A stretch of 64,000 nt of DNA from positions 235,071 to 299,070 of IMG/VR virus record IMGVR_UViG_3300031555_004294; one strand, given 5' to 3'. The first letter of the stretch is position 1, and each line of letters begins with the position of its first letter. The notes beneath the pieces are model-generated. The model worked only from the letters and a program-made list of their open reading frames with translations, ran no database searches and had not been told where the DNA came from. Below, piece by piece: positions 6,810 to 27,993 of this stretch. The translations under genes and the position numbers were made by a program. The DNA is from a virus (taxonomy: Duplodnaviria; Caudoviricetes).

Positions 6810-7103
6810 ATGAAAGAACTAAAATTTGTTGTAAAACTTAATGATAAAACTTATAACTCTTGGGCGTTTGTAGATAAAGAAATCAAAGAAGTAACTGGTA
6901 AATATAGCTTTTTTGGTGAACAAGAATGTTTTGAAAGTATAGAAGAAGCAAGTCTTTTTATTAAAGACGTGTTATATACTCCTAGAATTAATAGATGGAG
7001 ACCAGAAGTTGATGAAACTTGGTTTGAAATTGTACCAGTTTATTTTTCAAAAGATTTTAAGAGATATGTAACAAAAGAAATATTAGAAGAGGAGAATAAA
7101 TAA
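6810..7103 (+). CDS. Hypothetical protein
   Basis: ORF with RBS, coupled to gyrA (TAATG). Confidence 0.55.
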   Translation: MKELKFVVKLNDKTYNSWAFVDKEIKEVTGKYSFFGEQECFESIEEASLFIKDVLYTPRINRWRPEVDETWFEIVPVYFSKDFKRYVTKEILEEENK

Positions 7104-9607
7104 TGGCAGAAAATATAATCAAGAAAGATATAATTGACATACAAGAAGATAATATGTTACAGTACATGTTATCACTGATGTATGACAGAGCTATTCCAGA
7201 TATTAGAGATGGATTAAAACCCGTTCAAAAATATGCCATCTGGGAATGTTATACTAGTGGATACCTTCCAAATAAACCTCATGTAAAATGTGCTAAGATT
7301 GTAGGTTCTATTATTGGTTCTTGGAGTCCTCATGGTGATACAAGTGCTTATGATGCGTTGTGTCGATTAGCTCAAGATCATTCCATGTCAATTCCACCAA
7401 TTGACTTTCATGGTCAGTGTGGATCTATTGATGGATCAGGTGCAGCAGCATATCGTTATACCGAAGCAAGACTTAGTAAATATGGTCTTGATTTAATGCA
7501 AGAAATTGATAAAGATGCAGTTGACTTTGAAAAGAACTTTGATGTGTCTAAAGATCAACCTACTGTTCTACCAGTTGTCATTCCAAATATCCTTGTCAAT
7601 AGTTCAATGGGTATTGCTGGCGGATATGCTAGTAGTATTCCTCCACACAATATTAAAGATATCTGTAATGTAGTCATTGAATTAATTGACAATCCAAATA
7701 TGTCAGTTAAAGAAATTGCACATAAACTAACACCAGACTTTCCTACAGGTGGTATACTTTGTTCTAAGAAGGATATTGAGAAAGCATACATTACTGGACA
7801 AGGTTCAGTTAAACTTCGTGGTAGAGCAAATATAGTGAGAAATAAGAATGGAACATCAGAAATTGTAATTACTGAAATTCCATATATGACTACTATTGGT
7901 CCTCGTATGTCAGGTACATCAACCAATACAGATGGTGGCTTAATCAATTCTATAGTCGCTAAGATTAAAGATGGAACTATTGAGGGTATAAAGGACATTC
8001 ATGACGTTTCTGATAAGAATGGTCTTTGTATTAAAGTTTTCATCAAAAAAGACTATGATCCTGATATTATTCTTAATCAGCTGTATAAATTCACTCAGTT
8101 AGAGTCTACCTATAAAATTATTCTTGTTTGTAAAAATGGAAATGACTTCAATGTTTACAATATTAAGAAAATTTTAACTGAATGGTTAGAATTTAGAGCA
8201 ACTACAATCAGACGTATTATAGCTCATGACATTAAAAAGGCTAAATATAGAGAACATATCTTAGAAGGTTTATTAAAGGCTCTCAAAGATATCGATACTG
8301 TTATCAGTATTATCAGGAAAGCTAAAGGCAGAACTGAAGCTAAAGAAAAGTTAGTTGAAAAATATGGTTTTACTGATCTCCAAGTAGAAGCAATACTTGA
8401 TATGAAACTGTCTCAACTTAATTCTCTTGATGGTAAAAAACTTGAAGATGAAAGAGTAAGCAAACAGAATGAAATTATAACTCTAAAAACTAATCTGAAA
8501 GAAGAAAACATCTATAACAGAATTAAGGAAGAACAAAAAGAGTTTGCTAAGAAATATGGTAAAGATAGAAAAACTACTGTAGAAGAAATTGATACTGAAA
8601 TTACAACTGAGGATATTATTGCTGATGAAGATACACTTATTGTGGTAACTCAAGATAACTATATCAAGAGAGTTTCTAATGAGTTCAAAACTCAGAAACG
8701 TGGTACTCAAGGTATTTCTATTGGATCTAACAGTATAACTGAAATGTTTGCAGCTTCTACTAAAGACCATTTACTTTGTTTTACTAATACTGGTCGTGTA
8801 TATGATCTCAAAGCTTATGATATCAAAGAATCTAAAGATTTGAAAGCTAAGGGATTGAGAGTTGAAAGTTACTTGAATTTGAAAGAGAATGAAACTGTAA
8901 CTAATATTCTTTGCATTAGTAATACACAGATGAATGATAATGAGTCATTTTTAGTATTTGCTACCAGAAACGGAATGATTAAGAAGACTAAACTAGAAGA
9001 TTTTAACAACATTCGTTCTAATGGAATTATTGCGTTGATGTTAAAAGCTAATGATGAGCTAGTTTGTGTTAAGTATATTGACACTAGTAAAGATATGCAA
9101 GACATCTTGATATCTACTAAAAATGCTCAAACTGCCAGATATGATCATGAAGAAATCAAAGAGTTAGGTAGAAACACTTATGGTGTAATTGGACTTTGTT
9201 TAGAAAATGATGATAAGATTACAGACATGACAGTCATAGAAAGTGATGATCAGCTTATCTTCTTTGCTACTAAGCAAGGTTTAGGTAAAACTATTCTAGT
9301 TACAGATAATGTTGAAAAAACAGATCCTAATTCTAAAGAGAAAACAATCATTAATGATGGCTTTCCAAGATTAAAGCGTTCATCTAACATCAAGGGCAGA
9401 TTGTGTATGAAACTTAAAAAAGATGATGAACTTGTATCTATGGTAGCTGTCAATTCTGAAGAAGATGATTTAATGGTAGTAACAAATACTAAACTTTTAG
9501 TAGTTGAATCAGGTGAATTCAGAAAACCTCTAAAAAGACCAACTTATGGTAAGAAACTAGTAAATCTAACAAATGATGACTTTGTAAGGAAGGTTATTAC
9601 AAGATAA
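7103..9607 (+). CDS. gyrA: DNA gyrase subunit A
   Basis: RAIPDIRDGLKPVQ, SPHGDT, catalytic AAAYRYTEARL, GyrA-box-like QKRGTQG, C-terminal pinwheel repeats. Confidence 0.95.
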   Translation: MAENIIKKDIIDIQEDNMLQYMLSLMYDRAIPDIRDGLKPVQKYAIWECYTSGYLPNKPHVKCAKIVGSIIGSWSPHGDTSAYDALCRLAQDHSMSIPPIDFHGQCGSIDGSGAAAYRYTEARLSKYGLDLMQEIDKDAVDFEKNFDVSKDQPTVLPVVIPNILVNSSMGIAGGYASSIPPHNIKDICNVVIELIDNPNMSVKEIAHKLTPDFPTGGILCSKKDIEKAYITGQGSVKLRGRANIVRNKNGTSEIVITEIPYMTTIGPRMSGTSTNTDGGLINSIVAKIKDGTIEGIKDIHDVSDKNGLCIKVFIKKDYDPDIILNQLYKFTQLESTYKIILVCKNGNDFNVYNIKKILTEWLEFRATTIRRIIAHDIKKAKYREHILEGLLKALKDIDTVISIIRKAKGRTEAKEKLVEKYGFTDLQVEAILDMKLSQLNSLDGKKLEDERVSKQNEIITLKTNLKEENIYNRIKEEQKEFAKKYGKDRKTTVEEIDTEITTEDIIADEDTLIVVTQDNYIKRVSNEFKTQKRGTQGISIGSNSITEMFAASTKDHLLCFTNTGRVYDLKAYDIKESKDLKAKGLRVESYLNLKENETVTNILCISNTQMNDNESFLVFATRNGMIKKTKLEDFNNIRSNGIIALMLKANDELVCVKYIDTSKDMQDILISTKNAQTARYDHEEIKELGRNTYGVIGLCLENDDKITDMTVIESDDQLIFFATKQGLGKTILVTDNVEKTDPNSKEKTIINDGFPRLKRSSNIKGRLCMKLKKDDELVSMVAVNSEEDDLMVVTNTKLLVVESGEFRKPLKRPTYGKKLVNLTNDDFVRKVITR

Positions 9608-9691
9608 TTACAATACTCATCTAACTAAAACAAATGATAAAAATGGTTATTTCAAGAATCTAAAATCTTGAAATAACCATTTTAAATTTAA

Positions 9692-10123
9692 TTGGAAGGA
9701 ATATCCAAAATGGAAAAGAAAGTTTTTGATTTAAAGGTAGAAGTCAATTTAAAAGTTACAGAAGACGATATTGAAGATATCATGGTAACAGCTTTAGAAG
9801 GTGGAATTTCTTATTGGGCGTGTCTTGATAATACAAGAGAAGAATGGAAAAATTATGAAAATGATGATGACACACCAACTAGTATTATTGCAACTAAAAT
9901 ACTTCTTGATGGGAAGTCACTTTATTTCAGTGATGTTGAGGATCCTGATGAAATTTGGGAATTAACGTTAGACAAATTAATGATAAGTATTGGAACAATT
10001 ATTTTACATGATGAACATGAGTTGAGTTGTTCAAATAATACTTTAAATTTAGATTGTTTAGATGCATGTCTAGCAGATTCAATCATACAATACGCACTTT
10101 TCAATGAGATAATTTTTGGTTAA
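9692..10123 (+). CDS. Hypothetical protein
   Basis: ALEGGISYW and DACLADSIIQYALFNEIIFG motifs typical of small phage proteins. Confidence 0.6.
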   Translation: MEGISKMEKKVFDLKVEVNLKVTEDDIEDIMVTALEGGISYWACLDNTREEWKNYENDDDTPTSIIATKILLDGKSLYFSDVEDPDEIWELTLDKLMISIGTIILHDEHELSCSNNTLNLDCLDACLADSIIQYALFNEIIFG

Positions 10124-10328
10124 AACTTTTATAATTCTTCTGGAGGAATTAAAAATGAGATGTCCTAAATGTAATGGTGAAGTATTACTTACTGCAACTG
10201 CAACTGATAGTACAGGTGAAGACATTATTCTTCAGTATCATTGCGATTCTTGTAAGACAGAGTTAATAGAAAAAGATATTTTAGATTTGGATGGAACAAA
10301 TTATGACTTAGATGGAATTTTAAGTTGA
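10116..10328 (+). CDS. Small zinc-ribbon protein
   Basis: CPKC...CDSC; probable start MRCPKC behind GGAGG. Confidence 0.55.
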   Translation: MVKTFIILLEELKMRCPKCNGEVLLTATATDSTGEDIILQYHCDSCKTELIEKDILDLDGTNYDLDGILS

Positions 10329-10335
10329 TGGAAAT

Positions 10336-10746
10336 AATTAATCAGAGAAGTTGATGGTATCAGAGTAAAATAATGAATCATGAAATATAAAATAGTATCA
10401 AAATTGTATAATGAATCAATAATCTAGACAGTATCAATAATAGAAATGAATCATTCGAACAAATAGTATCACGTTGGTGTAATGAATCAAATGAACTTAT
10501 AGTATCAACATACAGAAATGAATCAGAACAAGAAATAGTATCAGGAATACACAATGAATCAATGATATTAATGTAGTATCAACCCATCTAAATGAATCAT
10601 TGTTGTCTACAGTATCATATATAAAAAATGAATCAACATGGTCAAATGGTATCACTTTCAATTAATGAATCAAATAAAGAAATAGTATCAAATACTTATA
10701 ATGAATCACGATCACCAATACAATAGTGTCAGAGCGTTTCAATGAA
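10336..10746 (+). ncRNA. TIGR-like dual-repeat guide array 1 (11 units, orphan)
   Basis: Alternating AATGAATCA and ANAGTATCA repeats with mostly 9-nt variable spacers (range 8-14), period about 36 nt; ends at a terminator. Confidence 0.85.
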
Positions 10747-10750
10747 AAAA

Positions 10751-10789
10751 AAGAATATACCCACCAAAGGATATATTCTTTTTTTTTTG
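10751..10789 (+). terminator. Bidirectional terminator closing array 1
   Basis: AAGAATATA/TATATTCTT stem with A run before and T run after. Confidence 0.75.
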
Positions 10790-10824
10790 TAAAAACTTCT
10801 AGTTACCAAGTTTCATCTTAAAAT

Positions 10825-12666
10825 CTATCGTTCATATTTGTAATCATAATTTCCACAATCCCAAATTCGACAATACTTAGTTTTGTCCATTATCTGGAAC
10901 TCAGTTAAGTTATCATCGTAAATCTCTGGAAATAATTTCTTTAGTTTATGCTTCTGAAAATTAAACCTAGTTTCTCTAGTAACAAAGTCTGTATAAGAAT
11001 AACCAGGTTTACTAATATCATCTAGAACAAATCCAGTTGATTCATATAATCCACCTTTAGACCATCTTCTATCAGCATATGTTATAATACTCTTCCATTC
11101 ATAATTCTCTTTAAAGTATCCAAATAACTTATCAAATGCTCCATAGACTTGAAATTCTATATCAGTAGCAAATCTAGAAAGTTCATAGTCATACTTTCCC
11201 TTTTTTGTAAATCTAGGTTTACAAAATGTCATAACTGCAACTAATCTATTTTCTTCATCGTTTATAGGATACCATAATCCAAGCTTTACATTAGCTTTAT
11301 CTTCACCTTGAATGTGATTTTCATTTAGGAATTGATTCTTATCTGAAGCATTAAGCTCAGCTATAAAGCATTTAGATGCTCTAATTTTAGGTAGTTCTTT
11401 AGAACAGCCTAAAATGTGTTTTAACTTAGACTTGACTATATCTTGCTTAAAGTTCCATTCATCTTCAAAAACATGTATTAATTGTATACCTTTCTGTTTA
11501 CAAGCAATGGTTTTGTTTAAGTGATAGTTTTTATCTGATAACATTTTCTCACTATGCCAATACAAACCATCAAATTCGATTGCTATATTTTTCTCTGGTA
11601 GGTAAATATCTAACTCTTTTCCATTTAAAATTGTACGATCATTTTCTATAATCGTTCCAGTGTAAAATGATTTGATAAATTCGATGATTTCTTTTTCATC
11701 GTCACTGTAACCCTTTATCTTAGAACATTTAGGACAACGATGCATTCTTGATGTAAAATGATGAGGAAGTACTGGATAATCATGTCCACAGGTATTATGC
11801 ATCATCTTAATAGAGACGCTTGCATTTACATATTTTCCAAGAACAGTATATTCATCACCTACTAGATCATAGACTTGCTTTTCAAATTGTTCTTGGGTGA
11901 ATGTTCTCTCTACTAGTCTACAATCCTTACAACGAACTCCTTGTTTAAATGAATGGGGAGTAATGTAATCAAGATCCTTTCCACATGTATTATGTCTCAT
12001 TGCTATTAGAGTGTCTGTATTAACATACTCGCCTAGCACAGTGTACTCGTCACCTACTAGAGCATAGACATCTTTCTTAAATCTTTCAGTTGTATAAGCT
12101 CCACATATCTTACATCTAACTCCACCAGTTATAAATGCATGAGGAGTTGTAGGAAAAGTTTCTCCACAAACAGAATGTAACATTTCAACTGGTTCGTTAT
12201 ATTTAGTAAACGGAGTTACTGGTAGGTACTCTCCACCAACCAAGTCATACACTTTTTGCTTAAACTTTTCATCCTTCTCCTTTGCTAAACATGTCTTACA
12301 ACGTTGCTGTCCTTTTTTAAATCTAGCTGGTATGATTGGATAAATTTCTCCGCACTTATGTTTTATATCGAGTTCTGTATTGTTATTTACATAGGTTCCT
12401 AAAACTGTATAGTCAGTTCCAACTAATTTGTACACTTCTTTCTTAAATGTTTCTGTAGTTCCTTTAAGGTTACCAAAACATACTGGACATCTTGTATTAT
12501 CTTTAAAATGTGCTGGTGTAATATACCACTCATCATAACCACAAACGTTATGTTTCATTCGTATCTTTGTCTTATCATTTGCATATTCACCTAGAACAGT
12601 ATATTCATCACCAACTAAACTTTCTACTAAAGCCTTGTACTCTTCAGTATTAGATCTTGGCCACAT
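10825..12666 (-). CDS. Putative homing endonuclease: repeated H..CG...CxxC zinc modules, a DUF559/Vsr-like nuclease domain and a Hef-like C-terminus
   Basis: Five repeats of (VY.LVG.EYTVLG.Y...H..CG...C..C); ELDIYLPEKNIAIEFDGLYWH; YELSRF, TYADRRWSKG, RIWDCG. Confidence 0.7.
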   Translation of the reverse strand: MWPRSNTEEYKALVESLVGDEYTVLGEYANDKTKIRMKHNVCGYDEWYITPAHFKDNTRCPVCFGNLKGTTETFKKEVYKLVGTDYTVLGTYVNNNTELDIKHKCGEIYPIIPARFKKGQQRCKTCLAKEKDEKFKQKVYDLVGGEYLPVTPFTKYNEPVEMLHSVCGETFPTTPHAFITGGVRCKICGAYTTERFKKDVYALVGDEYTVLGEYVNTDTLIAMRHNTCGKDLDYITPHSFKQGVRCKDCRLVERTFTQEQFEKQVYDLVGDEYTVLGKYVNASVSIKMMHNTCGHDYPVLPHHFTSRMHRCPKCSKIKGYSDDEKEIIEFIKSFYTGTIIENDRTILNGKELDIYLPEKNIAIEFDGLYWHSEKMLSDKNYHLNKTIACKQKGIQLIHVFEDEWNFKQDIVKSKLKHILGCSKELPKIRASKCFIAELNASDKNQFLNENHIQGEDKANVKLGLWYPINDEENRLVAVMTFCKPRFTKKGKYDYELSRFATDIEFQVYGAFDKLFGYFKENYEWKSIITYADRRWSKGGLYESTGFVLDDISKPGYSYTDFVTRETRFNFQKHKLKKLFPEIYDDNLTEFQIMDKTKYCRIWDCGNYDYKYER

Positions 12667-12780
12667 AAGTTTTCCTCCTTTATCTCGGTTCGAACAAATA
12701 CTTTATTGTATTGTTTCGAAAAATTTAAAGGAAAAAGTAAAAGGGATTACCCAAATAGGTAATCCCTTTATAAAGTTGAC

Positions 12781-13071
12781 TTAAGCGTTAAGGTCCTTCT
12801 TAAGCTGTGCGCCAGAAGTGAAGGAAGGCTGCTTACGTGCAGGAATGAGAATCTTTTCAGAAGGATTCTTAGGATTATGACCTTCTCTTGCTTCTACAGT
12901 TCTAGCCTTAAAAGTACCGAAGCCAGTAATCTGAACGATACCGTCAGTACGGAGACCAGAAGTGATTAGGTCGAGAAGAGTATTAACAACTTCTGCAGCT
13001 TCATTCTGAGTCAGCTTTACGCCCTCCATGGGGGTCTTAGAAAGTGCCTTAATTAGATCAGTCTTAGTCAT
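12781..13071 (-). CDS. hup: HU-like DNA-binding protein
   Basis: MTKTDLI...VQITGFGTF...REGHNP...IPARKQPSF. Confidence 0.92.
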   Translation of the reverse strand: MTKTDLIKALSKTPMEGVKLTQNEAAEVVNTLLDLITSGLRTDGIVQITGFGTFKARTVEAREGHNPKNPSEKILIPARKQPSFTSGAQLKKDLNA

Positions 13072-13419
13072 GATTTTTTACCATCCTTTATTAATTTTTT
13101 AAATTTTTAGCATTTACTTATAAAAATGAGTTTTTCTATGTATTACAACCAAAAACTAATTTCTATATGCATTATAAATATGTTTCTAGATTTTGTTTCT
13201 TTTTTATATAAAAAATCCCATTTTAAAGTTTTAGACAAGTGTACTACAAATATAGTTTCTACAACAATTAGTAATATTTTCTCTAAAACTTTCACATTAT
13301 CCTACAAAAGTATCTTCTAATCAATTATTCGTTTTTCATATTTTTTATGGTAAAAATATAGAAGTAAAAATTAAATATATATTTTAATCTTGTAAAATAT
13401 AGTAAAGGAGAAAATTGCT

Positions 13420-14889
13420 ATGTATAATTTATTACAAGCTTATTCAGATGAAAACCCAGAGAAATTTAACGAAGAACTGATCTATCTAAAGGAACATGAT
13501 GAAGTATTAACACACATCAACTCTATCTTTAAGGCTCTTGAAGTTATTAATGGAGTTGAATTTTTAGGAAGTACTATTAATAAAGATGAATCTAGTTTTC
13601 CAGATTATATTAAGAACGAGAAGCACCAAGTCAATATTGAAGAGTCTAGACATATGTTAATTACATTTAAGTTTAGGATTTTTGATAACAAAACAGGTGA
13701 AGAGGAAATTATTGAAAAGAGCTTGTTCTTTCCTAAATTGATAGACAAGACTTATTTTATTTTGAATGGAAATAAGTTTTTCCCAATTTACCAAATTATC
13801 GATAGCGCAACATACAATAACAATAGTAGTTTAACTTTAAAGACACTATTGATGGGTGTTACAATTCGTACTAAAGATATCGAATTTTATGATATGGACG
13901 ACAATAAATATGAAGGAGTCATTAAAGTAATCGATCTGTTTAAAAATAAACTCAATTACTTGATGTATTTCTTTGTAGATAGAGGTTATAACGATACTTT
14001 AGAATATTTCCTAGGTAGCGAAAATGTAAAGAAAATCCATTTAGTATTAGAAAACAGTAAAGAACATAAAAAGATTAACAATAACAACTACGTACAGTTT
14101 AAGTTAAAGGAAGAAACCATACTAGCTGTTGAAAAAGAATTATTTGATAGGTACTTTAAGTTCTTTACAAATGTAATTGATATTCTTAGTGATACTGAAA
14201 TGTTTCAAATTCTTGATAAAAACTATTGGAAGTTAGAAATGGGTAAGCTATTCAGTAGAAATAAGAATAATTACGAAAGCAAAGCAGATGATATTTTAAT
14301 TTCATTTAAGAGAATTCTAGATAATTCTACACAAAGTACTTTAAGATTAAAGGAAGAAAATAAGAGTGATATTTTTGCCATCATTAGATGGATGGTAAGA
14401 AATTATGACACTCTAATCTATCAGGATAATATGTCATTGGATTATAAGAGAATTCGTATTAATGAGTATCTTTGCTATGACTTGCTTATTAAGATGAGTA
14501 ATTCAACATATAGATTGCTTAATAAGTCTGAAATTACTTTAAAGGATAGACAGACTTTATTTAGTACTTTAACTCCTATGTATATTTTAAAGAAGATTGG
14601 TAGTAACGAACTGTTAAGATATTTTGGTGGCGTAAATGCGATTGAACTATTTAATCCTAGTCTTAAGTTCTCACAACGTGGATTCCAAGGTCTAGGTGAA
14701 GGTAGTCGTGATGTTAATAAGTCTTACAGAGGACTGCACTATTCATATCCTGGAAGGATAGGTCTGACTAGTAGTTCAGCTGGTGACCCAGGTATGTCAG
14801 GAACGTTCACTCCTTTCTCAAAAATTTATGTTGATAATGGTTTTTATTTCTCTGACACGATGTTAGACGAAAACGAACAAGACTTCTGA
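13420..14889 (+). CDS. Phage multisubunit RNA polymerase beta, N-terminal subunit (probably non-virion RNAP)
   Basis: FPKLIDKTYFILNG; SYRGLHYSYPGRIGLTSSSAGDPG is homologous to RpoB RDVHxSHYGRxCPxETPEG; TATATATT promoter upstream. Confidence 0.8.
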   Translation: MYNLLQAYSDENPEKFNEELIYLKEHDEVLTHINSIFKALEVINGVEFLGSTINKDESSFPDYIKNEKHQVNIEESRHMLITFKFRIFDNKTGEEEIIEKSLFFPKLIDKTYFILNGNKFFPIYQIIDSATYNNNSSLTLKTLLMGVTIRTKDIEFYDMDDNKYEGVIKVIDLFKNKLNYLMYFFVDRGYNDTLEYFLGSENVKKIHLVLENSKEHKKINNNNYVQFKLKEETILAVEKELFDRYFKFFTNVIDILSDTEMFQILDKNYWKLEMGKLFSRNKNNYESKADDILISFKRILDNSTQSTLRLKEENKSDIFAIIRWMVRNYDTLIYQDNMSLDYKRIRINEYLCYDLLIKMSNSTYRLLNKSEITLKDRQTLFSTLTPMYILKKIGSNELLRYFGGVNAIELFNPSLKFSQRGFQGLGEGSRDVNKSYRGLHYSYPGRIGLTSSSAGDPGMSGTFTPFSKIYVDNGFYFSDTMLDENEQDF

Positions 14890-15000
14890 GAAATTTTATA
14901 ACAATTTTATAAGTAGTGAAGGTCATAAAGAGAAAGTTTTATTCACTTTTTCTTTATGACTTTTCTACAAAAATTTTAATAAAATGATTGGAGACTTATA

Positions 15001-15711
15001 ATGAGTAACCTAATGAACAAAATTAGAACATCAAAAATAATTTTCAACATTCTTTTTATTTTATCTGAAGCGTATGCTGTTGTTACAAATTTACTTCCTT
15101 CAAAAGAAGAAAGAATTAAAAAGAACTATGAAGCTGTAAAGAAATTCACTAAAGAAGATGGTAAGGAATACATCAATGGACAAGGTTTAGGAGAAGTAGC
15201 AACTTTACCATTTGGAAAGAAAACATTTAGTTATTGCGGATGTGGTGCAATTGCAACTTACAATTCCTTAGTAACTTTAGGCTGTAAAGATTGTTTGGCT
15301 GATACTGCTAAATATTATGAGACCAGTGGACTTATTTTAGACGGTGCCTTTGGTATCCATCCAAATGCTGTTAGAAATTATTTTGAAGATGTTCAATGTG
15401 ATGTAAACGTACATATACTCTACAATTCTGATGTAGATAACAATTATGAAAAGTTTGATGAAATTTTTAAAGATGCAAAATCTGCAATCCTTTTATCTTG
15501 GAATTCTGTAAATCTAAAGCATGATAATGGTAATTTTGCAGGAATGCATTATGTATCTATATCACATTCATTAGACAAAGATGGTAATCCAAGAATTGAT
15601 GTTTATAATGCATACAGTAAAGTAAACCATCTTGTACATTACAACTCAATCGAATCGTACATTAAAACACAGAAAATACTCCCAGTAGTTTTATTTACAC
15701 TCAACAAGTAA
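15001..15711 (+). CDS. Putative C39-like cysteine peptidase
   Basis: GCGAIATYNSL and MHYVSI motifs; late promoter at 14900. Confidence 0.5.
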   Translation: MSNLMNKIRTSKIIFNILFILSEAYAVVTNLLPSKEERIKKNYEAVKKFTKEDGKEYINGQGLGEVATLPFGKKTFSYCGCGAIATYNSLVTLGCKDCLADTAKYYETSGLILDGAFGIHPNAVRNYFEDVQCDVNVHILYNSDVDNNYEKFDEIFKDAKSAILLSWNSVNLKHDNGNFAGMHYVSISHSLDKDGNPRIDVYNAYSKVNHLVHYNSIESYIKTQKILPVVLFTLNK

Positions 15712-15798
15712 TAATATTTAATCCGTACTATATCTATATATTTTAGATATAGTACGGATTAAATTTATGCTTAAAAATGAAAGGAAATAATACAAGAT

Positions 15799-16320
15799 AT
15801 GTATGAACGAGAGAATTATATATCATGGGATGAATATTTTATGGGAGTAGCTTTATTAGCTGCTAAGAGAAGTAAAGATCCTAGAAGACAAGTTGGAGCT
15901 TGTATTGTAAAAGACAATAAAATTTTAGCAACTGGATACAATGGTTTTCCTAGAGGATGCTCTGATGATGCTTATTGTTGGGCTAAAGATGTTGACAAAG
16001 AAGTAAATGAAAGAGAAAAAAGATTTAATAATAGACTCTCACGTAATAAGTTCTGGTATGTTATTCATGCAGAACTAAATGCAATTCTTAATTGTAATAG
16101 AACTGACTTAGATAATAGCATCATTTATGTTGATCTATTTCCTTGTAATGAATGTGCAAAAACAATCATTCAAGCTGGAATAAAAGAAGTTGTTTATATG
16201 AGTGATGAGGATATACACAAAGAGTCATATAAAGTGTCTAAACTAATGTTAGATGATGCAAATGTCAAAATAAGAAAGATTGAAAGAACTGAATTTTTGA
16301 TAAAACTAATGGAGGTTTAA
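15799..16320 (+). CDS. dCMP deaminase
   Basis: WDEYFM, RSKDP, QVGACIV, GYNG, HAELNAI, PCNECAK. Confidence 0.92.
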   Translation: MYERENYISWDEYFMGVALLAAKRSKDPRRQVGACIVKDNKILATGYNGFPRGCSDDAYCWAKDVDKEVNEREKRFNNRLSRNKFWYVIHAELNAILNCNRTDLDNSIIYVDLFPCNECAKTIIQAGIKEVVYMSDEDIHKESYKVSKLMLDDANVKIRKIERTEFLIKLMEV

Positions 16321-16322
16321 GT

Positions 16323-16691
16323 ATGTTTATACGTGTAGGAACTGTAGAAAGATACAATGAGAAAAAAGATGAAATTCTTGAAAACTTTGGTGAGAAAATT
16401 TTAGAAAGAACTAAAGAAATAGTAGAAATGCTGGATGAAGAATATGGAAAGGACAGAGATGTCTTTAATTCTGATGGTGGATGGGTTGTTTTAATTAAAA
16501 ACTACAAAGGTTTTGATGACTATGATGAACATTCAGAAACTGAAAGTCTATCAGAATCTGTGTATGAATATTGTAATGAAATTGATTTTGATCCATTTGT
16601 AGAAGTTCTCTATCTAGTAAATAACGAAACTGGTATCACTGTTTTTATGCCAAAGGAAATCTTCGAGACAGAATTAAACGAAGATGATTGA
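16323..16691 (+). CDS. Hypothetical protein
   Basis: ORF in operon with RBS GGAGG. Confidence 0.6.
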   Translation: MFIRVGTVERYNEKKDEILENFGEKILERTKEIVEMLDEEYGKDRDVFNSDGGWVVLIKNYKGFDDYDEHSETESLSESVYEYCNEIDFDPFVEVLYLVNNETGITVFMPKEIFETELNEDD

Positions 16692-17092
16692 AAGGAGAGC
16701 ACTCTATGAATGTTCTGTTAAGGAAAATCATAATTACATCAGACGAAGAAATTCAAATCCTTAATGAGAATACAAAAAAGACATTGTTTGGTAGAAATAA
16801 AGTTGTTGAAAATATAACTACTGAACAAGAACACTATGAATATTGGATTGAATTCCATATTGATCAAGGTAGATTTTACTATGGTGAGAAAAAACCTATA
16901 GAAATTGAAGGTAGGAATGGTATTTACAAATATCAAATCACTACTAGTCACACTAAACGTGGTCTTGATAAAAGTTTAGAAATTATCAGTGAAATTATGG
17001 AAAGAACTAAACTTATACATCCAAAATGGGAAATTGAATTGTATCAGGTTAAGAATATGCCATTCTATAGACAATTCGATAAAGATAATTGA
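16688..17092 (+). CDS. Hypothetical protein
   Basis: ORF in operon; lies immediately upstream of array 2. Confidence 0.55.
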   Translation: MKGEHSMNVLLRKIIITSDEEIQILNENTKKTLFGRNKVVENITTEQEHYEYWIEFHIDQGRFYYGEKKPIEIEGRNGIYKYQITTSHTKRGLDKSLEIISEIMERTKLIHPKWEIELYQVKNMPFYRQFDKDN

Positions 17093-17115
17093 GACATATA
17101 ATGGTGCCTTGTAAT

Positions 17116-17626
17116 AGAAAATCAATGTAATCGACAGTATCAATATTTGAAAATGAATCACTAGAAGAGATAGTAACATAACTTATGAATGAATCAATAT
17201 GTAAGACAGTATCAGACATATGCTAATGAATCAATACTAATTACAGTAACAGTCACCACTAATGAATCACATCGGGTAACAGTATCAAATAAATATAATG
17301 AATCAAATAACTTGAAAGTATCAATTGTAGCTAATGAATCAGTGCACATTAATAATATCACAGCGGTAATAAATGAACCATAATTGCGGATAGTAACAGA
17401 AGGAAATAGTGAATCAATGTCAGGGAACAGTATCAAGAGGTGAAAAATGAGTCAGCGAGAATGACAGTATCATATGACAGCAACGAATCAATATATTAAA
17501 CTCGTATCTTTTGTTCAAATGAATCATTCATACGGACAGTATCATGCTAAATCAATGAATCATGGATGAAAATAGTATCAGTGACTTATAATGAGTCAAG
17601 ATAAAAAACTCGTATCATTACAAATA
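17116..17626 (+). ncRNA. TIGR-like dual-repeat guide array 2 (14 units, orphan)
   Basis: AATGAATCA-9nt-ACAGTATCA-9nt periodicity, e.g. aatgaatca atatgtaag acagtatca gacatatgct; some repeat variants (aatgagtca, atagtaaca). Confidence 0.85.
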
Positions 17627-17635
17627 AACAATAAG

Positions 17636-17678
17636 AAATGACTAAATGAGATTTACTCTCATTTAGTCATTTTTTTTT
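17636..17678 (+). terminator. Terminator closing array 2
   Basis: AAATGACTAAATGAG/CTCATTTAGTCATTT stem followed by a T run. Confidence 0.8.
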
Positions 17679-18367
17679 TACATTTTTATAGCAATGTTAA
17701 GTTCTGGGAATCTAGCTTCTACTAAAATTCTGTCTTTACTATATCTATCGTTAGCGTTCCATTCTTCCTTTAGATACTTAAGACCACGAATAACTTGCTT
17801 TGTTACTTCCTTTAAGTCAGAAGATTCTCTTACAAGAATAGGATATGCTTTAGGATTAAAAGATAAAATCTTTAAAGGATCACATTTGATCTTTAAGCCA
17901 TTTTCATCATAAGCAACTGCTTCGTTAATCATCATGTTGTGATTATGATATTCAGTTTCTAAAACTAAAGTTTTTGTATTGGATGGCATATTGTAATCTA
18001 AAGATTCGAAATAAGATTGAATGTCCAAATCTGTATTGTTAATTGCAGTATCAAAATTAAAACTGCTTTCAGAAATAACCTTACGTTTGTAAACTAGATT
18101 CATTTCATTTAAACGATGATCCCAGAATTCATCAGTAGATTCCTGAGTTAAGGACTCAATCGAAATTGTATCAGACCATTTTGTATAATAATTTGCTACT
18201 AAAATCTTACCTAAGTCTGTAAAGTCTTCAGTATACATTTTAGAATCAACACCAAATGTCTCTAGATTTTCTATACCAACATCAGTTAGAAGATTTTTAC
18301 CTTCACACCAAGTATAAAACTTTTCTAATATATTAAATGAATGCTGTTTATTCATGATTTCAGTCAA
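17678..18367 (-). CDS. Hypothetical late (virion?) protein
   Basis: Late promoter at 18407-18418 (-). Confidence 0.6.
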   Translation of the reverse strand: MTEIMNKQHSFNILEKFYTWCEGKNLLTDVGIENLETFGVDSKMYTEDFTDLGKILVANYYTKWSDTISIESLTQESTDEFWDHRLNEMNLVYKRKVISESSFNFDTAINNTDLDIQSYFESLDYNMPSNTKTLVLETEYHNHNMMINEAVAYDENGLKIKCDPLKILSFNPKAYPILVRESSDLKEVTKQVIRGLKYLKEEWNANDRYSKDRILVEARFPELNIAIKM

Positions 18368-18427
18368 TACTTCCTTTCTTTTAAAAGTTTTTGTATCATA
18401 TTACATTATTTAGTTGTTTGCTTTTAT

Positions 18428-19120
18428 TTATCCAACAAAGATCTTTCTATGTCTAGCAGACTTGTTAAAATTACTTCTCCAACGTTCTAACAATTGTTTC
18501 TTATCTTCAAAAGCTGAGTCAAGTTTATCCATGAAAAGTTCAACATTTCCGAATGTAGTATTGATTGTACTAAATCTTTGTCTAATAGGATAAAGTGCAA
18601 TACGTACATCATAAAGAGCACACTCTAAAAACTCATTTCTATACCCCAATGGAATAGTAGCTAAATGCTCTGGATGGATTGTTTTAACCTGTACTGTAAA
18701 ATTTCCAAGTAATTGTGTTTTTGGGAATACAGATACTATATTTGGTGATTCATATTCAAATGTAATAGGCTGTAAGAACATAGATGCTATGTCTGCAGTC
18801 ATCTGTCTATTAATTGGATCACTGTCATAATATGCTAAAGGGAGACCTGAATTACCCATATAGTTTTCAGCTAATACTTTAGAAACACCTAATATTTCTC
18901 TATCAGTCTTTAGATAAAACGTATTAAAACGATTAGGTACCTTATCCTCAGCTACACGAATGGTAAGATACTCATAGTTTGGATAGTAGATACTAAATGT
19001 TGGAAGTGTTTGTGTTCTAACAATTTCCATAATCTCATTTGCATCTAATTCCAATACTTGTAAGGATGCACCTAAATTTAGTTCGATGTATTGTAAAACA
19101 TCAGTAGGATTCATTGGCAT
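18428..19120 (-). CDS. Hypothetical late protein, possibly neck/head-completion
   Basis: In a late cluster; YI...LGA...V.EL N-terminus recalls myovirus neck proteins. Confidence 0.4.
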   Translation of the reverse strand: MPMNPTDVLQYIELNLGASLQVLELDANEIMEIVRTQTLPTFSIYYPNYEYLTIRVAEDKVPNRFNTFYLKTDREILGVSKVLAENYMGNSGLPLAYYDSDPINRQMTADIASMFLQPITFEYESPNIVSVFPKTQLLGNFTVQVKTIHPEHLATIPLGYRNEFLECALYDVRIALYPIRQRFSTINTTFGNVELFMDKLDSAFEDKKQLLERWRSNFNKSARHRKIFVG

Positions 19121-19147
19121 ATTTATTCACCTACTTTCTTTATCTGC

Positions 19148-19801
19148 TTAAATCAAAATATCTGAGTCGTGTCTTTCACTATTAACTTTTAGATACGAAT
19201 AACTAGAACTATTAGGAACTGTCATTTTACCAACAATTGGATTTGCTAATACTCGATTATCAGTCTTAATAGTTACTTCGTCCTTTAGATCTTTAGTAGT
19301 TGCACCAGCAATATCATCTGGTGTAATTTCGTATGTGTTTACTGTAAAACCAGGAACCATAGACTTTACCTTATCATCAATCATATCAGAAGTTGCGGCA
19401 TTTATATCAATGGCTTCTTTTTTGATAGCTAATGCAAAGTTTTTATACTTTTCAGTATAATTTCCACATAGATCCATTAAAGCTGAAGATTCAGAAAAAC
19501 TCTTTAACTCAAATAGATTCTCTAATTTGTCTCTCTTTAAGTAGTGAAGAACAGTCTCCTGTAAGAGTCTCATATTGTTAAGAAATCTTACTTCTTCCAT
19601 TTCATCTAATGAGTCTTCTATATTTAAAGGTCTAGAATTTAAAGCAATTCCAATAAAATCTTCATTGTCTATAAACTGAATGCTACTTTCTGTAAAATAT
19701 GGTTTAAAATATTCATTCATCTTACTACGCTGTAAATCATGATTGATACTTTTTGCTGTTCTCAATCCAATTTTTTTTATGTCTTCCTTATTATAGGTCA
19801 T
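19148..19801 (-). CDS. Hypothetical late protein
   Basis: Late promoter at 19859-19870 (-). Confidence 0.6.
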   Translation of the reverse strand: MTYNKEDIKKIGLRTAKSINHDLQRSKMNEYFKPYFTESSIQFIDNEDFIGIALNSRPLNIEDSLDEMEEVRFLNNMRLLQETVLHYLKRDKLENLFELKSFSESSALMDLCGNYTEKYKNFALAIKKEAIDINAATSDMIDDKVKSMVPGFTVNTYEITPDDIAGATTKDLKDEVTIKTDNRVLANPIVGKMTVPNSSSYSYLKVNSERHDSDILI

Positions 19802-19945
19802 TTAGATTATACCTTGCCTTTCTTTATATTTTGCCATGTATTTTTGTATCCGTCTAATTAATGATATGTTTTATCATATTAAAGAAAAAAGATGATTTAC
19901 AAATATAGAGAAGTATAGCCACTAAAGACTATACTTCTCTATAAC

Positions 19946-20527
19946 TTAATCTTGCATGAGCAGAGTGTCTAATACAAAATCTTCTTCGTCACAACAATCA
20001 ATGCGATCAAAAGGAGGTCTGCACTGACATTCCATTCCACCTAAAGGCATAGGAGGACGGCACATATTGTAGACATCTCTATTATTTAATGCATTAGAAT
20101 TTTCATCTGCACCATCTTCATTATCTTCATCATAACCAGAAAAATCATCATGACTTAAAATACGAATAGCATCATCATTAAATCCAACCAAAATGAGAAT
20201 AATGTTTACACCAGATTGTGCCAGATGACCCTTTACTAATACAGAGTAGAAAGGAACACGTTTACCACCTTTAGTCTCATACTTTTTTACCATTTCAAAA
20301 GCATCAATAACTAAAGTAGTTGGAATAGAAATAACGTACTTTCTCTTGTTTAAGTCCTTCTTAAATTTTTTAGTATTTCTTAAAATGACGGTAATACCCT
20401 CTACATCAGCTTCAGATTGAACTGCCATGTCAAAATATTTTAAAAATACCTCATGTTCATCAAATTCAAGTAAAGCTGATTCTATTTCATTAAAAGCTTC
20501 AGCTGTTCTAGCTGTAATTTTTAGCAT
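19946..20527 (-). CDS. Hypothetical late protein
   Basis: Late promoter at 20579-20590 (-); RBS AAAGGAG. Confidence 0.6.
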   Translation of the reverse strand: MLKITARTAEAFNEIESALLEFDEHEVFLKYFDMAVQSEADVEGITVILRNTKKFKKDLNKRKYVISIPTTLVIDAFEMVKKYETKGGKRVPFYSVLVKGHLAQSGVNIILILVGFNDDAIRILSHDDFSGYDEDNEDGADENSNALNNRDVYNMCRPPMPLGGMECQCRPPFDRIDCCDEEDFVLDTLLMQD

Positions 20528-20599
20528 AATACTTTAAATCTCCTTTCATCATTTTTAATATTCACAAACACCATAAAGTAATAATTTGTTTTTGCATAA

Positions 20600-21997
20600 T
20601 TACTCACTGAGAATTTCCATAACAGGAGACTCATAATATTCGTTAAGAGCTTCTGAAAAATTTTCTGTCATATAATATTCAATACCAAGATCTTCTTTTC
20701 TGATTTCAATTTTATCTTTAAGCAAATTAGTATCAAAATCATAAATTTCTTGATCGCTAACGTCTATACTTCCAGCAATATCACGTTTTCTTTCCATATT
20801 TGAAAACAGAGAGTTTATTGCTTTTCTAAAATAAGGTGTTTTCTTTAATAATTTTTCGATAGCTTCAATATCGTTTTCAATCTCTTCAATCTGCTTGGGA
20901 GACATATTTTTACGGTTATTATTTAATTCATATTTTAACTTTTCTAAAGTAAATATAATTCGCTTTCTATCAGTAGGATGTTCGTCATTCATATATTTTA
21001 CGAAATCAAATAAAACCTCGTGATAATAATCTAAAATTCTAATTAATGGAATTTTTGACGTAATTTTTCTTTTATAAGATAAATCGTCGGTATTATTAAA
21101 TGTCGCTACGACACCTTTAGCATAACCATATGAAGCAGCAAAATTATCGGCAAATCTTTCATTAGTGTATCCTTTACCTTTCTTTTCCTGCTTACTTAAT
21201 TCTTTATATGACGCAGAATTAATAATAATTGGAAGAAATAAAGTATAAAAGACTGTTTTTGCCAATCTAAAGCCAGATGTAAGTAGTTTTTTACTAACAG
21301 TAGACAATGTATAAAATAATTTACCAATACCAGTATGGTCTGATTTATATTTTTGATTTACAATATCATGTGCCTTATCTGTTAAAAATTTTTTTGTTTG
21401 CTCGTAAGTCGTATACTGTAAACCCTGTTTAAAACTAATTCCTTCTTGTATTAGAACCTTTACTACTTCTACAGTTAAATTTGGATCGTAATTATAGTAA
21501 TCTAACAACTGTAAGAGATATAAAACCAATTCAGTAAATACTTTAGCTTTACGATTTTGAATTTCTTCCTTAATAAAAAAGAAATTATGTCCAATTTCAT
21601 GTAATAAAACTGCCATAATGCTTTCTATATTATAATTTCGTATAGTGTAGCTATTGGTATAAATGTAAAGAGTCTTACCAACAGATGATTTATAGCGTAT
21701 ACCACTACTATCAGAAACTAATTCAAAAAAACTGTCATTATAACTACGATTTTTTTCATAATAGAATGGCATAGTATACGCATTCATACCTCTCTCATCA
21801 GCTATAATGGAAAAATATACCTTTTCACAGTTAAATTTTTTAGCAATTAGATTCTCAAATTTAGTTTTTTCTGGAACTCCATTTGGATTTTTATTATTTG
21901 CAACTGCATCTTTTAGAGCCTGAATACAATTTTCACATTCTAGTAAAGTTTCATCCTTACCAAAATAAGACTCTTGTAGGATTATATTTTCATTCAT
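20600..21997 (-). CDS. Zinc metallopeptidase (M48-like HExxH)
   Basis: NAY, VLLHEIGH, ERFADNFA, EHPTDRKRI. Confidence 0.7.
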   Translation of the reverse strand: MNENIILQESYFGKDETLLECENCIQALKDAVANNKNPNGVPEKTKFENLIAKKFNCEKVYFSIIADERGMNAYTMPFYYEKNRSYNDSFFELVSDSSGIRYKSSVGKTLYIYTNSYTIRNYNIESIMAVLLHEIGHNFFFIKEEIQNRKAKVFTELVLYLLQLLDYYNYDPNLTVEVVKVLIQEGISFKQGLQYTTYEQTKKFLTDKAHDIVNQKYKSDHTGIGKLFYTLSTVSKKLLTSGFRLAKTVFYTLFLPIIINSASYKELSKQEKKGKGYTNERFADNFAASYGYAKGVVATFNNTDDLSYKRKITSKIPLIRILDYYHEVLFDFVKYMNDEHPTDRKRIIFTLEKLKYELNNNRKNMSPKQIEEIENDIEAIEKLLKKTPYFRKAINSLFSNMERKRDIAGSIDVSDQEIYDFDTNLLKDKIEIRKEDLGIEYYMTENFSEALNEYYESPVMEILSE

Positions 21998-22025
21998 AGG
22001 TTTTCAATTTCACCTTACTTTCTTT

Positions 22026-23222
22026 TTAATATTTGTTCAGGATAACCTGTTGTGTTGCAATACAGAAAAAGATGAAAATCGACTTTCTATAAGCAATGAG
22101 AGATGCAACTCTACTTGTTTTTAAATATTTCTCAGAATTTTCTTTTAACCAAGTATCTAATATTTCTTTGATACGAATTATACCCTTGTCATTAGTATTT
22201 GACTTACCATAGATTTTATTAGCATACACTAAGAAATTATTACTGGAGAATGTTGCTTCTGGATGCTTATCAACTACCAGATATTGATGCAAGAACAGTA
22301 TTATGAATTCCTTTATCAATTTGTCGTCTTTTTCTATGATCCGTTTGACAACATTATGAACCTCATTAATAGATACGCCAGCTATTTTAGCAGACATTTC
22401 TATGATATTTTGGTTCAAATTAGATGTGATGATTGTATTTGCACATTTTTCACCCATCTGATATATTTTAGCAGATACATTAGTTGTCTCATAGAAATCT
22501 TCAACATCAGTTCCTTCTCTTTCAGTATTCATGTACACTTTACTGTCTTTGTACTTGTTGTAAAGTGTTAGAATCTCTTTGATGAAGTTATTGATACGAA
22601 CGTACATATTCATAATGTACTGGAAGATAAGATAGTCAGAAAATTCCTTATCGTTTAGATATTCCTCGTATTTTTCATGACAACCAAGTGAAACCTTTTG
22701 TAATACCTGTATGATTGTACCATATTTTTTTATGTCATATCTGTTACTCATAGTACTGATGATGTAAGCCAATTTATTAGGATTGAATGGGTACTTTAGT
22801 CTTGCATTTATAATTGAAGAGTACAATGCTAGTGCAAGATATAAAATAGATAACTTCATTTCGTTATCTTTTTTATTGTCTCTGTAATACTTAATTACAT
22901 TGGTTAAAGCCCAATATTCTGGTTTGTTATATAAAACCCAGTGACTATCAGTCTGTCCACTTTCTTTTATGAGTGCTTTAATTTCATTTGGTGTCTTACC
23001 TACGCTATTAAAAAGTACTTCTCCATCTAAACTATCAACTTTCCAGTATAAGTACTTAAAGTCAGCATTAAATAGCTTGTCGTGATTTCGGTCTATATAT
23101 TTTGGAATGTACTCTAAAAGTTCTTTTCCTTTATTTCTATCAAGGTTCATCTTTATATCTGGATAGCACTTTTCTTTAAAAACAAATGTGCTAGTATTTT
23201 TAGACGTAGCCATATAAATCAC
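22026..23222 (-). CDS. Hypothetical late protein
   Basis: Late promoter at 23247-23258 (-). Confidence 0.6.
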   Translation of the reverse strand: MIYMATSKNTSTFVFKEKCYPDIKMNLDRNKGKELLEYIPKYIDRNHDKLFNADFKYLYWKVDSLDGEVLFNSVGKTPNEIKALIKESGQTDSHWVLYNKPEYWALTNVIKYYRDNKKDNEMKLSILYLALALYSSIINARLKYPFNPNKLAYIISTMSNRYDIKKYGTIIQVLQKVSLGCHEKYEEYLNDKEFSDYLIFQYIMNMYVRINNFIKEILTLYNKYKDSKVYMNTEREGTDVEDFYETTNVSAKIYQMGEKCANTIITSNLNQNIIEMSAKIAGVSINEVHNVVKRIIEKDDKLIKEFIILFLHQYLVVDKHPEATFSSNNFLVYANKIYGKSNTNDKGIIRIKEILDTWLKENSEKYLKTSRVASLIAYRKSIFIFFCIATQQVILNKY

Positions 23223-23325
23223 CTTTCTTTCATTATAGTTTTGTATTATAGAATTGTTTTGAATGCATTATAGAATGCAAAAAAAAAGAAATAGTTTTCC
23301 ATGAGAAAACTATTTCTTTTTAATT

Positions 23326-24813
23326 TTAGTAGTTGCTTACTCTTAGCTCACGAATCTTATTCGTCCAACCATTATCTACAGAAAGATGATCTCGTCTTCC
23401 AGTAAGCACCCACATAAGTTTTGTTGAAGAACTAGGTCTATACGTTTCGTCAATATGAGACTCACCAAATCCATCAGTGAAATAAATTAGCAAGTCTGGC
23501 TTTTCGCTTCCACGTAACTCTTCCTTTAAGTATTGAAAGACTGGTTGAAAACGAGTTCCGCCTCGTCCTGTTACTTTTGTACTCACTTCTTTAATGTTTG
23601 AAGCTGTATAGACTCTTCCAATTTGCATATCGCATTCAATAATGGTCAACTCAAATTCTACTAACTTAAGAATTGCAAAAATCTCATTGAATACAAACTG
23701 AAGATCTTTTTCGCTCATTGAACCAGATGTATCAATAGCTACTGTAATCTTAATCCTTCTATCAGAAATACGTCCTTGTACGTCATATCTGTCATCTTGT
23801 TTTACTATTGAACTGTTACATTCTGACATTAGATCATATACTAGATACGTGCCTTTAGTTCTTCTGGATCTTCTAAGAGGAGTTGTCTTATAAGGAACTC
23901 TAACTGAACCAACCATTCTCTTTAACTCATCTTGCCATTTGATAATTGTAGGTGCGTTAATCTTTTTGATAAGTTCTTGTAATTCACCAGGAATATTACC
24001 ACAGCTCTTAGCTGCTTCATTAACCATGTGTTTTACAATTTCTTTCATGTTTTGCACATCCGAACTATCTGACTCTTTCCAAATAGAATGGTCAACAGGA
24101 TACTTTTTATCAAGAATCTCATCAATCATATCACTGATTGATTTTCCAGATCCATTGCCATTTTGACCTTGCTGTCCATCCCCCATTTGTTGACCTAATT
24201 GCTCGAGAATGTCCTGCAAGTCCTTCATCATCTGTTTGTACTTTTCAGAACCATTTTTATAAGCTTCAGAATTCTTTACCAATTCCAAATAATACTCAAA
24301 TGCTTCTTTGCGATTTGTGTTATACTTGTTGAGATTAAACATCTCACAGAAGTTATCAAATGTTATACATTCGTTGGGAATATCAGGAATAAACTGATTG
24401 ATAGCTACATCCATTACAATGTTTTCAATATAGCTATCAAAACGGTTGTTATTTTCTTTGCTTCTCAGCAAATGCATATGAAGCAAATGGTATACTTCAT
24501 GTTTGAGAATTGCTTTTACTTCTTTGTGAGTATATCTTAACAACAGAGCTGGATTAAGAACTAACAAAGGATTTCCTTTTTTAATAGTAACTCCAGCTGG
24601 TGCAGAAAGGACATAACTAACCTCTCTTTGCATATGAATGATAAACGTACCAAAGAAATGGTCTGAAACTAGCAAATTGAACACAATTAGTTCAATATAC
24701 TCTTTAAAGTAGCTAGTTGCAGTTTTTGTATCTCCTTCATTCATCGCTGTCAGACATCTTGTTTTAAGTTGTTCAACATTCATGTCGTCTAAACTAGTCA
24801 TCTTAGCTGCCAT
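23326..24813 (-). CDS. DUF2201-type metallopeptidase-vWA protein
   Basis: ILKHEVYH; MIDAS motif AIDTSGSM; GRGGT.F; YFTDG. Confidence 0.85.
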   Translation of the reverse strand: MAAKMTSLDDMNVEQLKTRCLTAMNEGDTKTATSYFKEYIELIVFNLLVSDHFFGTFIIHMQREVSYVLSAPAGVTIKKGNPLLVLNPALLLRYTHKEVKAILKHEVYHLLHMHLLRSKENNNRFDSYIENIVMDVAINQFIPDIPNECITFDNFCEMFNLNKYNTNRKEAFEYYLELVKNSEAYKNGSEKYKQMMKDLQDILEQLGQQMGDGQQGQNGNGSGKSISDMIDEILDKKYPVDHSIWKESDSSDVQNMKEIVKHMVNEAAKSCGNIPGELQELIKKINAPTIIKWQDELKRMVGSVRVPYKTTPLRRSRRTKGTYLVYDLMSECNSSIVKQDDRYDVQGRISDRRIKITVAIDTSGSMSEKDLQFVFNEIFAILKLVEFELTIIECDMQIGRVYTASNIKEVSTKVTGRGGTRFQPVFQYLKEELRGSEKPDLLIYFTDGFGESHIDETYRPSSSTKLMWVLTGRRDHLSVDNGWTNKIRELRVSNY

Positions 24814-26000: not shown

Positions 26001-26108
26001 TTAAAAATTCACCACACTTTATAAAAAATTTTAACCATTCAGTGTTAGATAAGTAAAGTTTGGTTCTCTACTTATCTAACACTAAAACTTTGTTATGTTT
26101 CCTCCAAG

Positions 26109-27284: not shown

Positions 27285-27410
27285 TTTCTGTTTATCTCCT
27301 TTTTGTATTAAAGTTTTACTAAGTAAAAATATATAGTTATAAACGTTTTTAGTGTTTATAACTATATATCTCTCCAACAGTTTTAAATTCTGTCGTAAAT
27401 TTGGTCATTA

Positions 27411-27927: not shown

Positions 27928-27941
27928 AAAAAATTTTATAA

Positions 27942-27977: not shown

Positions 27978-27993
27978 ATTTTTCATAGTTCTA

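Follow-up and report, generated by a model that had tools for sequence, protein, structure and literature searches.

Array 1 of the gut jumbo phage analysed here is, judged by its sequence, a dual-repeat TIGR array, that is, one of the recently described non-CRISPR guide-RNA arrays. It is probably functional and gives 11 of the phage's 39 tigRNAs to a single TasA protein encoded 17 kb away. The DNA analysed (the window) forms the final 64 kb of an IMG/VR virus record of 299,070 bp, rated complete by CheckV. The genome contains exactly three TIGR arrays with identical repeats and 39 units in total, all inside the window. Chains of at least three repeats are found nowhere else in the 299-kb genome, and shuffled genomes give none. 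The initial annotation had described array 1 as an orphan guide array and had proposed a genome-wide scan for its repeats and for other Nop genes, as well as a comparison with related phages. Both have been run: the scan gives the three arrays and no further Nop gene, and the comparison shows that dispersed arrays recur in four jumbo phages with the same repeats.

Table 1 Features of the window and of the related genomes G001 to G004
Genome	Position	Strand	Feature	Basis
Window	9640–9683	.	Bidirectional terminator-like hairpin, −21.7 kcal/mol, between topoisomerase gene and short unit	
Window	9710–10123	+	137-aa ORF, phrog_2355, unknown function; first gene of short unit before array 1	
Window	10155–10328	+	57-aa CxxC Zn-ribbon ORF; presumed co-transcribed with array 1	ORF, flank reading
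Window	10336–10749	+	TIGR array 1, 11 units and terminal truncated edge AATGAAAAA	Repeat counts, chain parse
Window	10627–10672	+	Array 1 unit 9, spacers ACATGGTCAA / CTTTCAATT; also in array 3, ~27663–27716	Parse, unit comparison
Window	~10751–10790	+	Intrinsic terminator at end of array 1: hairpin of −16 kcal/mol, T10	
Window	10825–12666	−	Hef-like HNH homing endonuclease gene, convergent with array 1	Same gene directly after tas-adjacent array in G001
Window	17116–17634	+	TIGR array 2, ~14 units, partly degenerate repeats; syntenic with second array of G001	
Window	17633–17675	+	Terminator closing array 2, −22.3 kcal/mol, T10	
Window	27329–27369	−	Hairpin (−25 kcal/mol, T5) past array 3 and upstream of MoxR-like ATPase gene	
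Window	27418–27935	−	TIGR array 3, 14 units, directly downstream of tas; final truncated edge AATGACCAA	
Window	27942–27977	−	Hairpin −21.2 kcal/mol between tas stop codon and array 3	
Window	27994–29043	−	tas gene, 349 aa when started at M36 of longer ORF; TasA type with coiled coil and Nop domain but no nuclease domain	
Window	3023–9598		Matches G001 138.9–150.1 kb (+); then two small ORFs at G001 150.7–151.3 kb	
Window	10831–19804		Matches G001 198.3–206.7 kb (+), directly after G001 tas-adjacent array	
Window	20139–27310		Matches G001 161.4–151.4 kb, inverted	
Window	27481–62461		Matches G001 ~197.7–169.3 kb, inverted	
G001, 319.6 kb	196.75–197.69 kb		tas, Tas identity 63%	
G001	197.72–198.22 kb; 203.88–204.55 kb; near 266.95 kb		Arrays: tas-adjacent; second; three-unit mini-array	
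G002, 263.8 kb	50.5–51.4 kb		tas, Tas identity 47%; adjacent array and second array 10 kb off on other strand	
G003 (IMGVR_UViG_3300031555_002387), 247.1 kb	209.1–210.0 kb		tas, Tas identity 44%	
G003	57.8; 85.4–87.0; 153.2; 207.75–208.37; 226.2–226.65 kb		Arrays	
G004 (IMGVR_UViG_3300029305_003110), 209.8 kb, 85% complete	121.2–122.0 kb (121234–122007)		tas, Tas identity 44%	

In the chain parse of the window, array 1 comprises 11 units of 36 nt, in agreement with the initial count of 11 units with the same two repeats. Each unit runs from an edge repeat, AATGAATCA, through the 9-nt spacer A to a loop repeat, A[T/C]AGTATCA, and the 9-nt spacer B. The window holds 33 exact copies of the 9-mer AATGAATCA (2.7 expected), a count reached in 0 of 100 shuffles. 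Ten copies lie in array 1, at 10372–10708 with a spacing of 36–38 nt, and alternate with TAGTATCA across the array; edge-repeat starts are at 10336 and then from 10372 up to 10700. The edge and loop repeats are two distinct 9-nt types in strict alternation. Their positions are 82–100% conserved in array 1; in particular, both repeats carry G at position 4 and a terminal ATCA, which are 92–100% conserved, and box D (5′) and box C (3′) motifs are common to the two. The first repeat, AATTAATCA at 10336, is of the start type (..AATCA) or truncated, and the 3′-truncated edge that follows unit 11 begins at 10741. Perfect edge repeats number 10 of 12 in array 1, 8 of 15 in array 2, and 13 of 13 in array 3; the repeats of array 1 are thus about as intact as those of the array next to tas. 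Spacers of array 1 are exactly 9 nt in 17 of 22 cases and of other length in the remaining five.

Published dual-repeat TIGR arrays have alternating repeats of 8–12 nt, 9-nt spacers, and usually 5–15 units of 36 nt (Faure 2025, Science, PMC12045711). Their first edge repeat is 5′-truncated, their last is 3′-truncated and followed by a terminator, and box D and box C motifs are common to edge and loop (PMC12045711). We applied limits of 8–12 nt for the repeats, 9 nt (rarely up to 12) for the spacers, and about 36 nt for the unit. On repeats, spacers, ends, and terminator, array 1 agrees with all published sequence criteria. It differs in its position, as such arrays adjoin tas and the sole tas gene of this phage lies 17.2 kb away on the opposite strand, close to the 17 kb given initially. 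A CRISPR array, defined by one repeat type of about 25–36 nt and spacers of similar length, is ruled out by the two alternating 9-nt repeats and the 9-nt spacers. No Rfam family is matched within the window.

Array 1 directly follows a short unit of two small ORFs. The stop codon of the Zn-ribbon ORF (10326–10328) is followed by 7 nt, and the first repeat starts at the eighth base, exactly as first noted. A hairpin scan finds no terminator between this ORF and array 1, and the terminator reported at the end of the array is confirmed (Table 1). The + strand operon whose tail array 1 was said to be proves short, as the strong hairpin at 9640–9683 lies between the topoisomerase gene (7103–9607) and the two small ORFs. 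Therefore, the operon before array 1 would hold at most these two ORFs, barring read-through. Only about 10 nt separate the hairpin from the ribosome-binding site of the first ORF.

No promoter is recognised for array 1. A scan with the sigma-70 consensus stays at or below the shuffle level near all three arrays, the late motif of phage AR9 (AACA-N6-T[AG], PMC5312081) is absent upstream of all three, and motifs resembling the early motifs of AR9 are not convincingly placed before array 1. Since array 1 lies 8 nt behind an ORF with no terminator between and has kept its own terminator, read-through transcription is the default expectation. Many arrays have a strong hairpin immediately before them, as at 27942–27977 (−) in the window and in the upstream flanks in G002, G003, and G004, which leaves no space for a separate promoter. 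Such hairpins could act as leaky terminators, form 5′ leader structures, or contain the promoter.

The 299-kb genome encodes a single Tas/Nop-like protein, as searched with tblastn and with the Pfam Nop and Transposase_20 models; its gene (27994–29043) is far from array 1, in accordance with the initial statements that there is one Tas-like protein and no Nop gene nearby. Homologues show that its true start is M36 of the longer ORF (27994–29148, −). The protein scores 151.7 bits against NCBIfam TIGR_Tas_endo (NF052498), above the curated cut-off of 100, and phmmer matches it to the TasR structure 9mty and to TasH structures. With its AF2 model (pLDDT 79), the top 11 Foldseek matches are TasH and TasR cryo-EM structures (E 6e-8 to 1e-4), and the next are the IS110-family recombinases IS621 and ISCro4. 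The region before the coiled coil is disordered in the model and varies in length among homologues, and Pfam detects no HNH or RuvC domain; the protein is therefore assigned to the nuclease-less TasA type.

SpTasH cuts its own precursor with residues Y289 and H296 (PMC13421893). In pairwise HMMER alignments, which are not structural, H296 corresponds to the near-invariant H363 and Y289 corresponds to F356 (numbering of the longer ORF). Residue 356 is also Phe in the closest homologues, including the sole jumbo-phage homologue aligned (P0022, from a 263,786-bp contig, G002), and distant homologues have Tyr. Because of this substitution, guide processing by Tas alone is not assured in the clade, which may use other residues for cutting or need a host RNase. 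A His at +4 (H360) always accompanies the Phe, whereas that position is variable in Tyr-bearing homologues. This His may be part of an alternative processing dyad.

By analogy with described systems, we infer transcription through the array, cutting at the edge repeats, recognition of 18 bp by tandem spacers, and repression without cleavage. Transcription from the two-ORF unit at 9710–10328, or read-through from upstream, would enter array 1 and end at 10751–10790. TasA dimers would recognise the edge and loop repeats at their ends, which resemble box C (..UCA) and box D (..UG/AG), and the precursor would be cut inside each edge repeat near AAUGA|AUCA, a site proposed because the first repeats retain only ..AATCA and the last repeats only AATGA... 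Every cut would free one 36-nt guide. The guide would lead the dimer of nuclease-less TasA to an 18-bp DNA site, spacer A base-pairing with one strand and spacer B with the other, where TasA would bind and block transcription or replication without cutting. Published TasA proteins repress transcription in a guide-dependent manner (bioRxiv 10.64898/2026.09.09.750476).

All genomes compared here, that of the window phage with its arrangement of array 1 included, are metagenome assemblies, which is the principal caveat. A single-sequence search of viral contigs with Tas finds no relative; an alignment-based scan of IMG/VR succeeded and gives 331 Tas-encoding loci. At least six jumbo phage genomes share the exact edge and loop repeats, although their Tas identity is only 44–63%. 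Four jumbo phages with the identical two repeats (G001 to G004, one tas each), whose genomes are complete or nearly so, were taken whole and parsed. The distal arrays of G001 are at +6 kb and +69 kb from tas. G003 has five arrays with about 76 edge repeats, of which only that at 207.75–208.37 kb is near tas, and the four distal ones are 17–150 kb from it. In G004, arrays are located solely at 9.1–10.4 kb (9105–10383), 111 kb from tas, with about 30 guides and no array within 10 kb of the gene. In G005 (210.8 kb) and in two phages with genomes of about 160 kb, every array adjoins tas. Of the 13 arrays of the window phage and G001 to G004, nearly all close with a truncated edge and, on the strand of the array, a hairpin plus T-run; start-type repeats (..AATCA) open most of them. 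On this parse, dispersed arrays up to 150 kb from tas appear to be the rule in a clade of related jumbo phages.

Within some arrays, neighbouring units recur at a fixed offset with 2–4 differences (86041/86113 versus 86714/86750 in G003; 9529/9566 versus 9892/9929 in G004), which points to growth by segmental tandem duplication and subsequent divergence. At 107745–108080, G004 has a weak second Tas match (28.6% identity, 140 aa, E 0.006), which may be a Nop-like fragment that has diverged.

How array 1 came to its place is shown by synteny with G001, the closest relative, compared at the ORF and DNA level. In G001, the MoxR-like ATPase gene directly follows the Zn-ribbon gene, and the tas-adjacent array is followed by the Hef-like endonuclease gene, which in the window comes after array 1. 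The tas-proximal array of G001 consists of two sub-arrays with a gap of about 55 nt, the first ending with a truncated AATGA.. edge and the second starting with ..AATCA. In the window, the last repeat of array 3 is AATGACCAA, and the first of array 1 has the form ..TTAATCA. The block that matches the Zn-ribbon/MoxR intergenic region of G001 has its left end at the hairpin at 27329–27369. In the outgroups G002 to G004, and likewise in G001, two genes of the downstream block (window ORFs 20600–21997 and 22026–23222) have homologues no more than about 5 kb from the topoisomerase gene, one of which shares its orientation; therefore, the arrangement in the window phage is derived. Two inversions in total are needed to relate the window phage and G001 in the region. 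On the simplest reading of this gene order, an inversion in the lineage of the window phage split a two-part tas-proximal array, and array 1 is the distal half that was severed. The breakpoints would lie between the sub-arrays and in the Zn-ribbon/MoxR intergenic region, such that sub-array I (array 3) stayed with tas and sub-array II (array 1) came to lie behind the Zn-ribbon gene. By this synteny, array 1 is not an independently founded locus. With exact shared stretches of just 20–22 nt, a misassembly at the unit common to arrays 1 and 3 is improbable.

Array 2 and the syntenic second array of G001 have conserved repeats and no shared spacer pair, and proteins encoded nearby have diverged to 64–90% identity between the two phages. 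A distal array was thus retained while its neighbours diverged, and distal arrays can persist through full spacer turnover. This persistence is the best argument that distal arrays are used.

Targets were searched with the geometry deduced from published 8-nt 3′ overhangs, that is, spacer A, a gap of 0–2, and then spacer B as its reverse complement, and with re-paired spacers or wrong geometry as controls. The phage's own genome contains no perfect spacer-pair match and 14 matches with two mismatches, versus nine in re-paired controls. In five genomes (the phage and four relatives), matches with one or two mismatches are at the control level. The sole perfect match in the five genomes is between the array 2 unit at 17261–17296 and G004:19359 (gap 1); it overlaps an intergenic terminator hairpin in its 3′ arm and tail and is not significant, with an estimated 0.2 or so expected by chance. 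An IMG/VR scan with unit 4 gives three matches in the correct geometry and three in the control geometry. The GC content of the spacers (0.32) matches that of the genome (0.31). Within pairs, spacers A and B resemble each other no more than in shuffled pairs; the targets are thus not palindromic in general. One spacer pair, [A/T]CTTGAATT[G/T] / TTGAATGGG, is nearly identical (2 differences) at G001 204300 and G002 61336, where about 0.005 is expected by chance in a rough estimate, and the Tas proteins of these phages are less than 50% identical. The shared pair suggests a conserved target; no target for it is found in the five genomes.

On the main rival reading, which we consider unlikely, array 1 would be a recently stranded remnant, separated by the inversion from tas and its own leader, silent or only incidentally transcribed, and drifting to loss. 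The inversion origin supported by synteny fits it, as does the lack of a recognised leader or promoter for array 1. In addition, the older distal array 2 is degenerate, namely in its 3′ half, and five spacers of array 1 deviate from 9 nt. As the inversion is perhaps recent, the intact repeats could reflect too little time for decay rather than selection. However, array 1 is expected to be transcribed by read-through, distal arrays with conserved repeats persist in four relatives including the syntenic site in G001, and irregular spacers occur as well in the tas-proximal array 3. A use of distal arrays mainly on the Tas proteins of other phages, either as decoys that soak up a competitor or as guides that load the Tas of a co-infecting relative, would account for repeats that are identical in at least six jumbo phages despite the divergence of Tas, since guides and proteins are then possibly interchangeable between co-infecting relatives. 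We regard this as quite improbable, because the phage's own tas-adjacent array has the same repeats, which makes its own TasA the simplest user, and no target is found in the genomes of relatives. Short conserved 9-mers at an 18/36-bp phase could in principle bind protein as DNA, for example as iterons or as a partition or packaging site. Such a role is highly improbable: all arrays are strand-polar, their architecture equals that of arrays that experimentally yield tigRNAs, and a tas gene always co-occurs with them.

We therefore retain the reading of array 1 as a probable source of guides for the distant TasA. The initial interpretation (an operon tail, processing in trans, and a distributed library) is partly supported by the sequences. 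A wider version is possible yet doubtful: the guides of the clade would form a genome-wide library of up to five loci and about 40–75 guides, up to 150 kb from one TasA, with arrays on differently timed units (3′ tails or stand-alone) for stage-specific silencing of genes of the host or of rival phages, and arrays would perhaps be preferred rearrangement breakpoints.

Among published systems, the dual-repeat TIGR-TasA system of Flavonifractor plautii (FpTIGR, PMC12045711) shares with array 1 and its Tas the two repeats, the two 9-nt spacers, the 36-nt unit, the truncated end repeats, the terminator, and a protein with a Nop domain only and no nuclease. In contrast to FpTIGR, array 1 is 17 kb from tas instead of adjacent and starts 8 nt after a protein gene, three arrays serve one tas, and box C is UCA, not CCA. 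The SpTIGR-TasH system of Salicola phage CGphi29 (PMC12045711; PMC13421893) is likewise phage-borne, with a dual-repeat array and the G-H motif of the C-terminal Nop loop. SpTasH, however, has an HNH domain and cuts DNA, whereas the Tas protein here has no nuclease domain and has F356 in place of Y289. The TIGRFinder catalogue (Xu 2026, bioRxiv 10.64898/2026.09.09.750476) records arrays upstream of, downstream of, flanking, and inside tas. It was searched only around tas loci, so that arrays 10–150 kb off fall outside, and the same study leaves open another guide source for apparently ‘arrayless’ Tas genes.

Array 1 also invites comparison with CRISPR. Orphan or distal CRISPR arrays lie far from the effector whose repeat they carry, and cas genes at other sites presumably serve them in trans. 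Array 1 differs from them in its 9-nt dual repeats, split spacers, and Nop-fold effector, and in having no Cas proteins. We know of no adaptation machinery for TIGR systems.

A full-text literature search returned no orphan or distal TIGR arrays and no TIGR in jumbo phages, although such cases may still be published. The system itself is published, and the advance lies in its organisation, not in a new mechanism. In particular, distal arrays in four related jumbo phages and the origin of array 1, as read from synteny, are new. TIGR-Tas was described in 2025, and natural targets, array growth, and truly arrayless Tas genes are open questions in the field. A tas-anchored search misses most guides, namely 25 of 39 in the window phage, most of those of G003, and all of those of G004, whose tas would look arrayless though about 30 guides sit 111 kb away. 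Inversion through the gap of a two-part array would provide a concrete route to a distal array. Hints at array growth come from the segmental duplications inside arrays and from the unit common to arrays 1 and 3. The set assembled here comprises complete genomes with full guide inventories, the material required for finding targets as soon as a host has been identified.

In G001, the gene for the MoxR-like ATPase (151452–152798) appears to be broken some 65 codons in by an intron-like insert of about 1.15 kb with its own ORF. The copy in the window (start 27291, minus strand) has no such insert.

Contigs of four faecal metagenomes were compared with positions 9300–29200 and contain the same phage at low depth. 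They are identical to the window where long pieces align, for example at 16464–17443 and 27650–28476. In all four metagenomes, a contig matches the window from position 27642, inside array 3, upward. Before this position, the contigs carry 255 nt of unrelated coding-like sequence that is absent from all five phage genomes, and they may stem from a variant or a relative whose tas-proximal array is shorter. The stretch at 15276–16603 has a contig depth about eight times that of neighbouring DNA in the four faecal metagenomes, with many variant joints. This stretch (ORFs 15799–16691) is probably common to other abundant organisms or phages.
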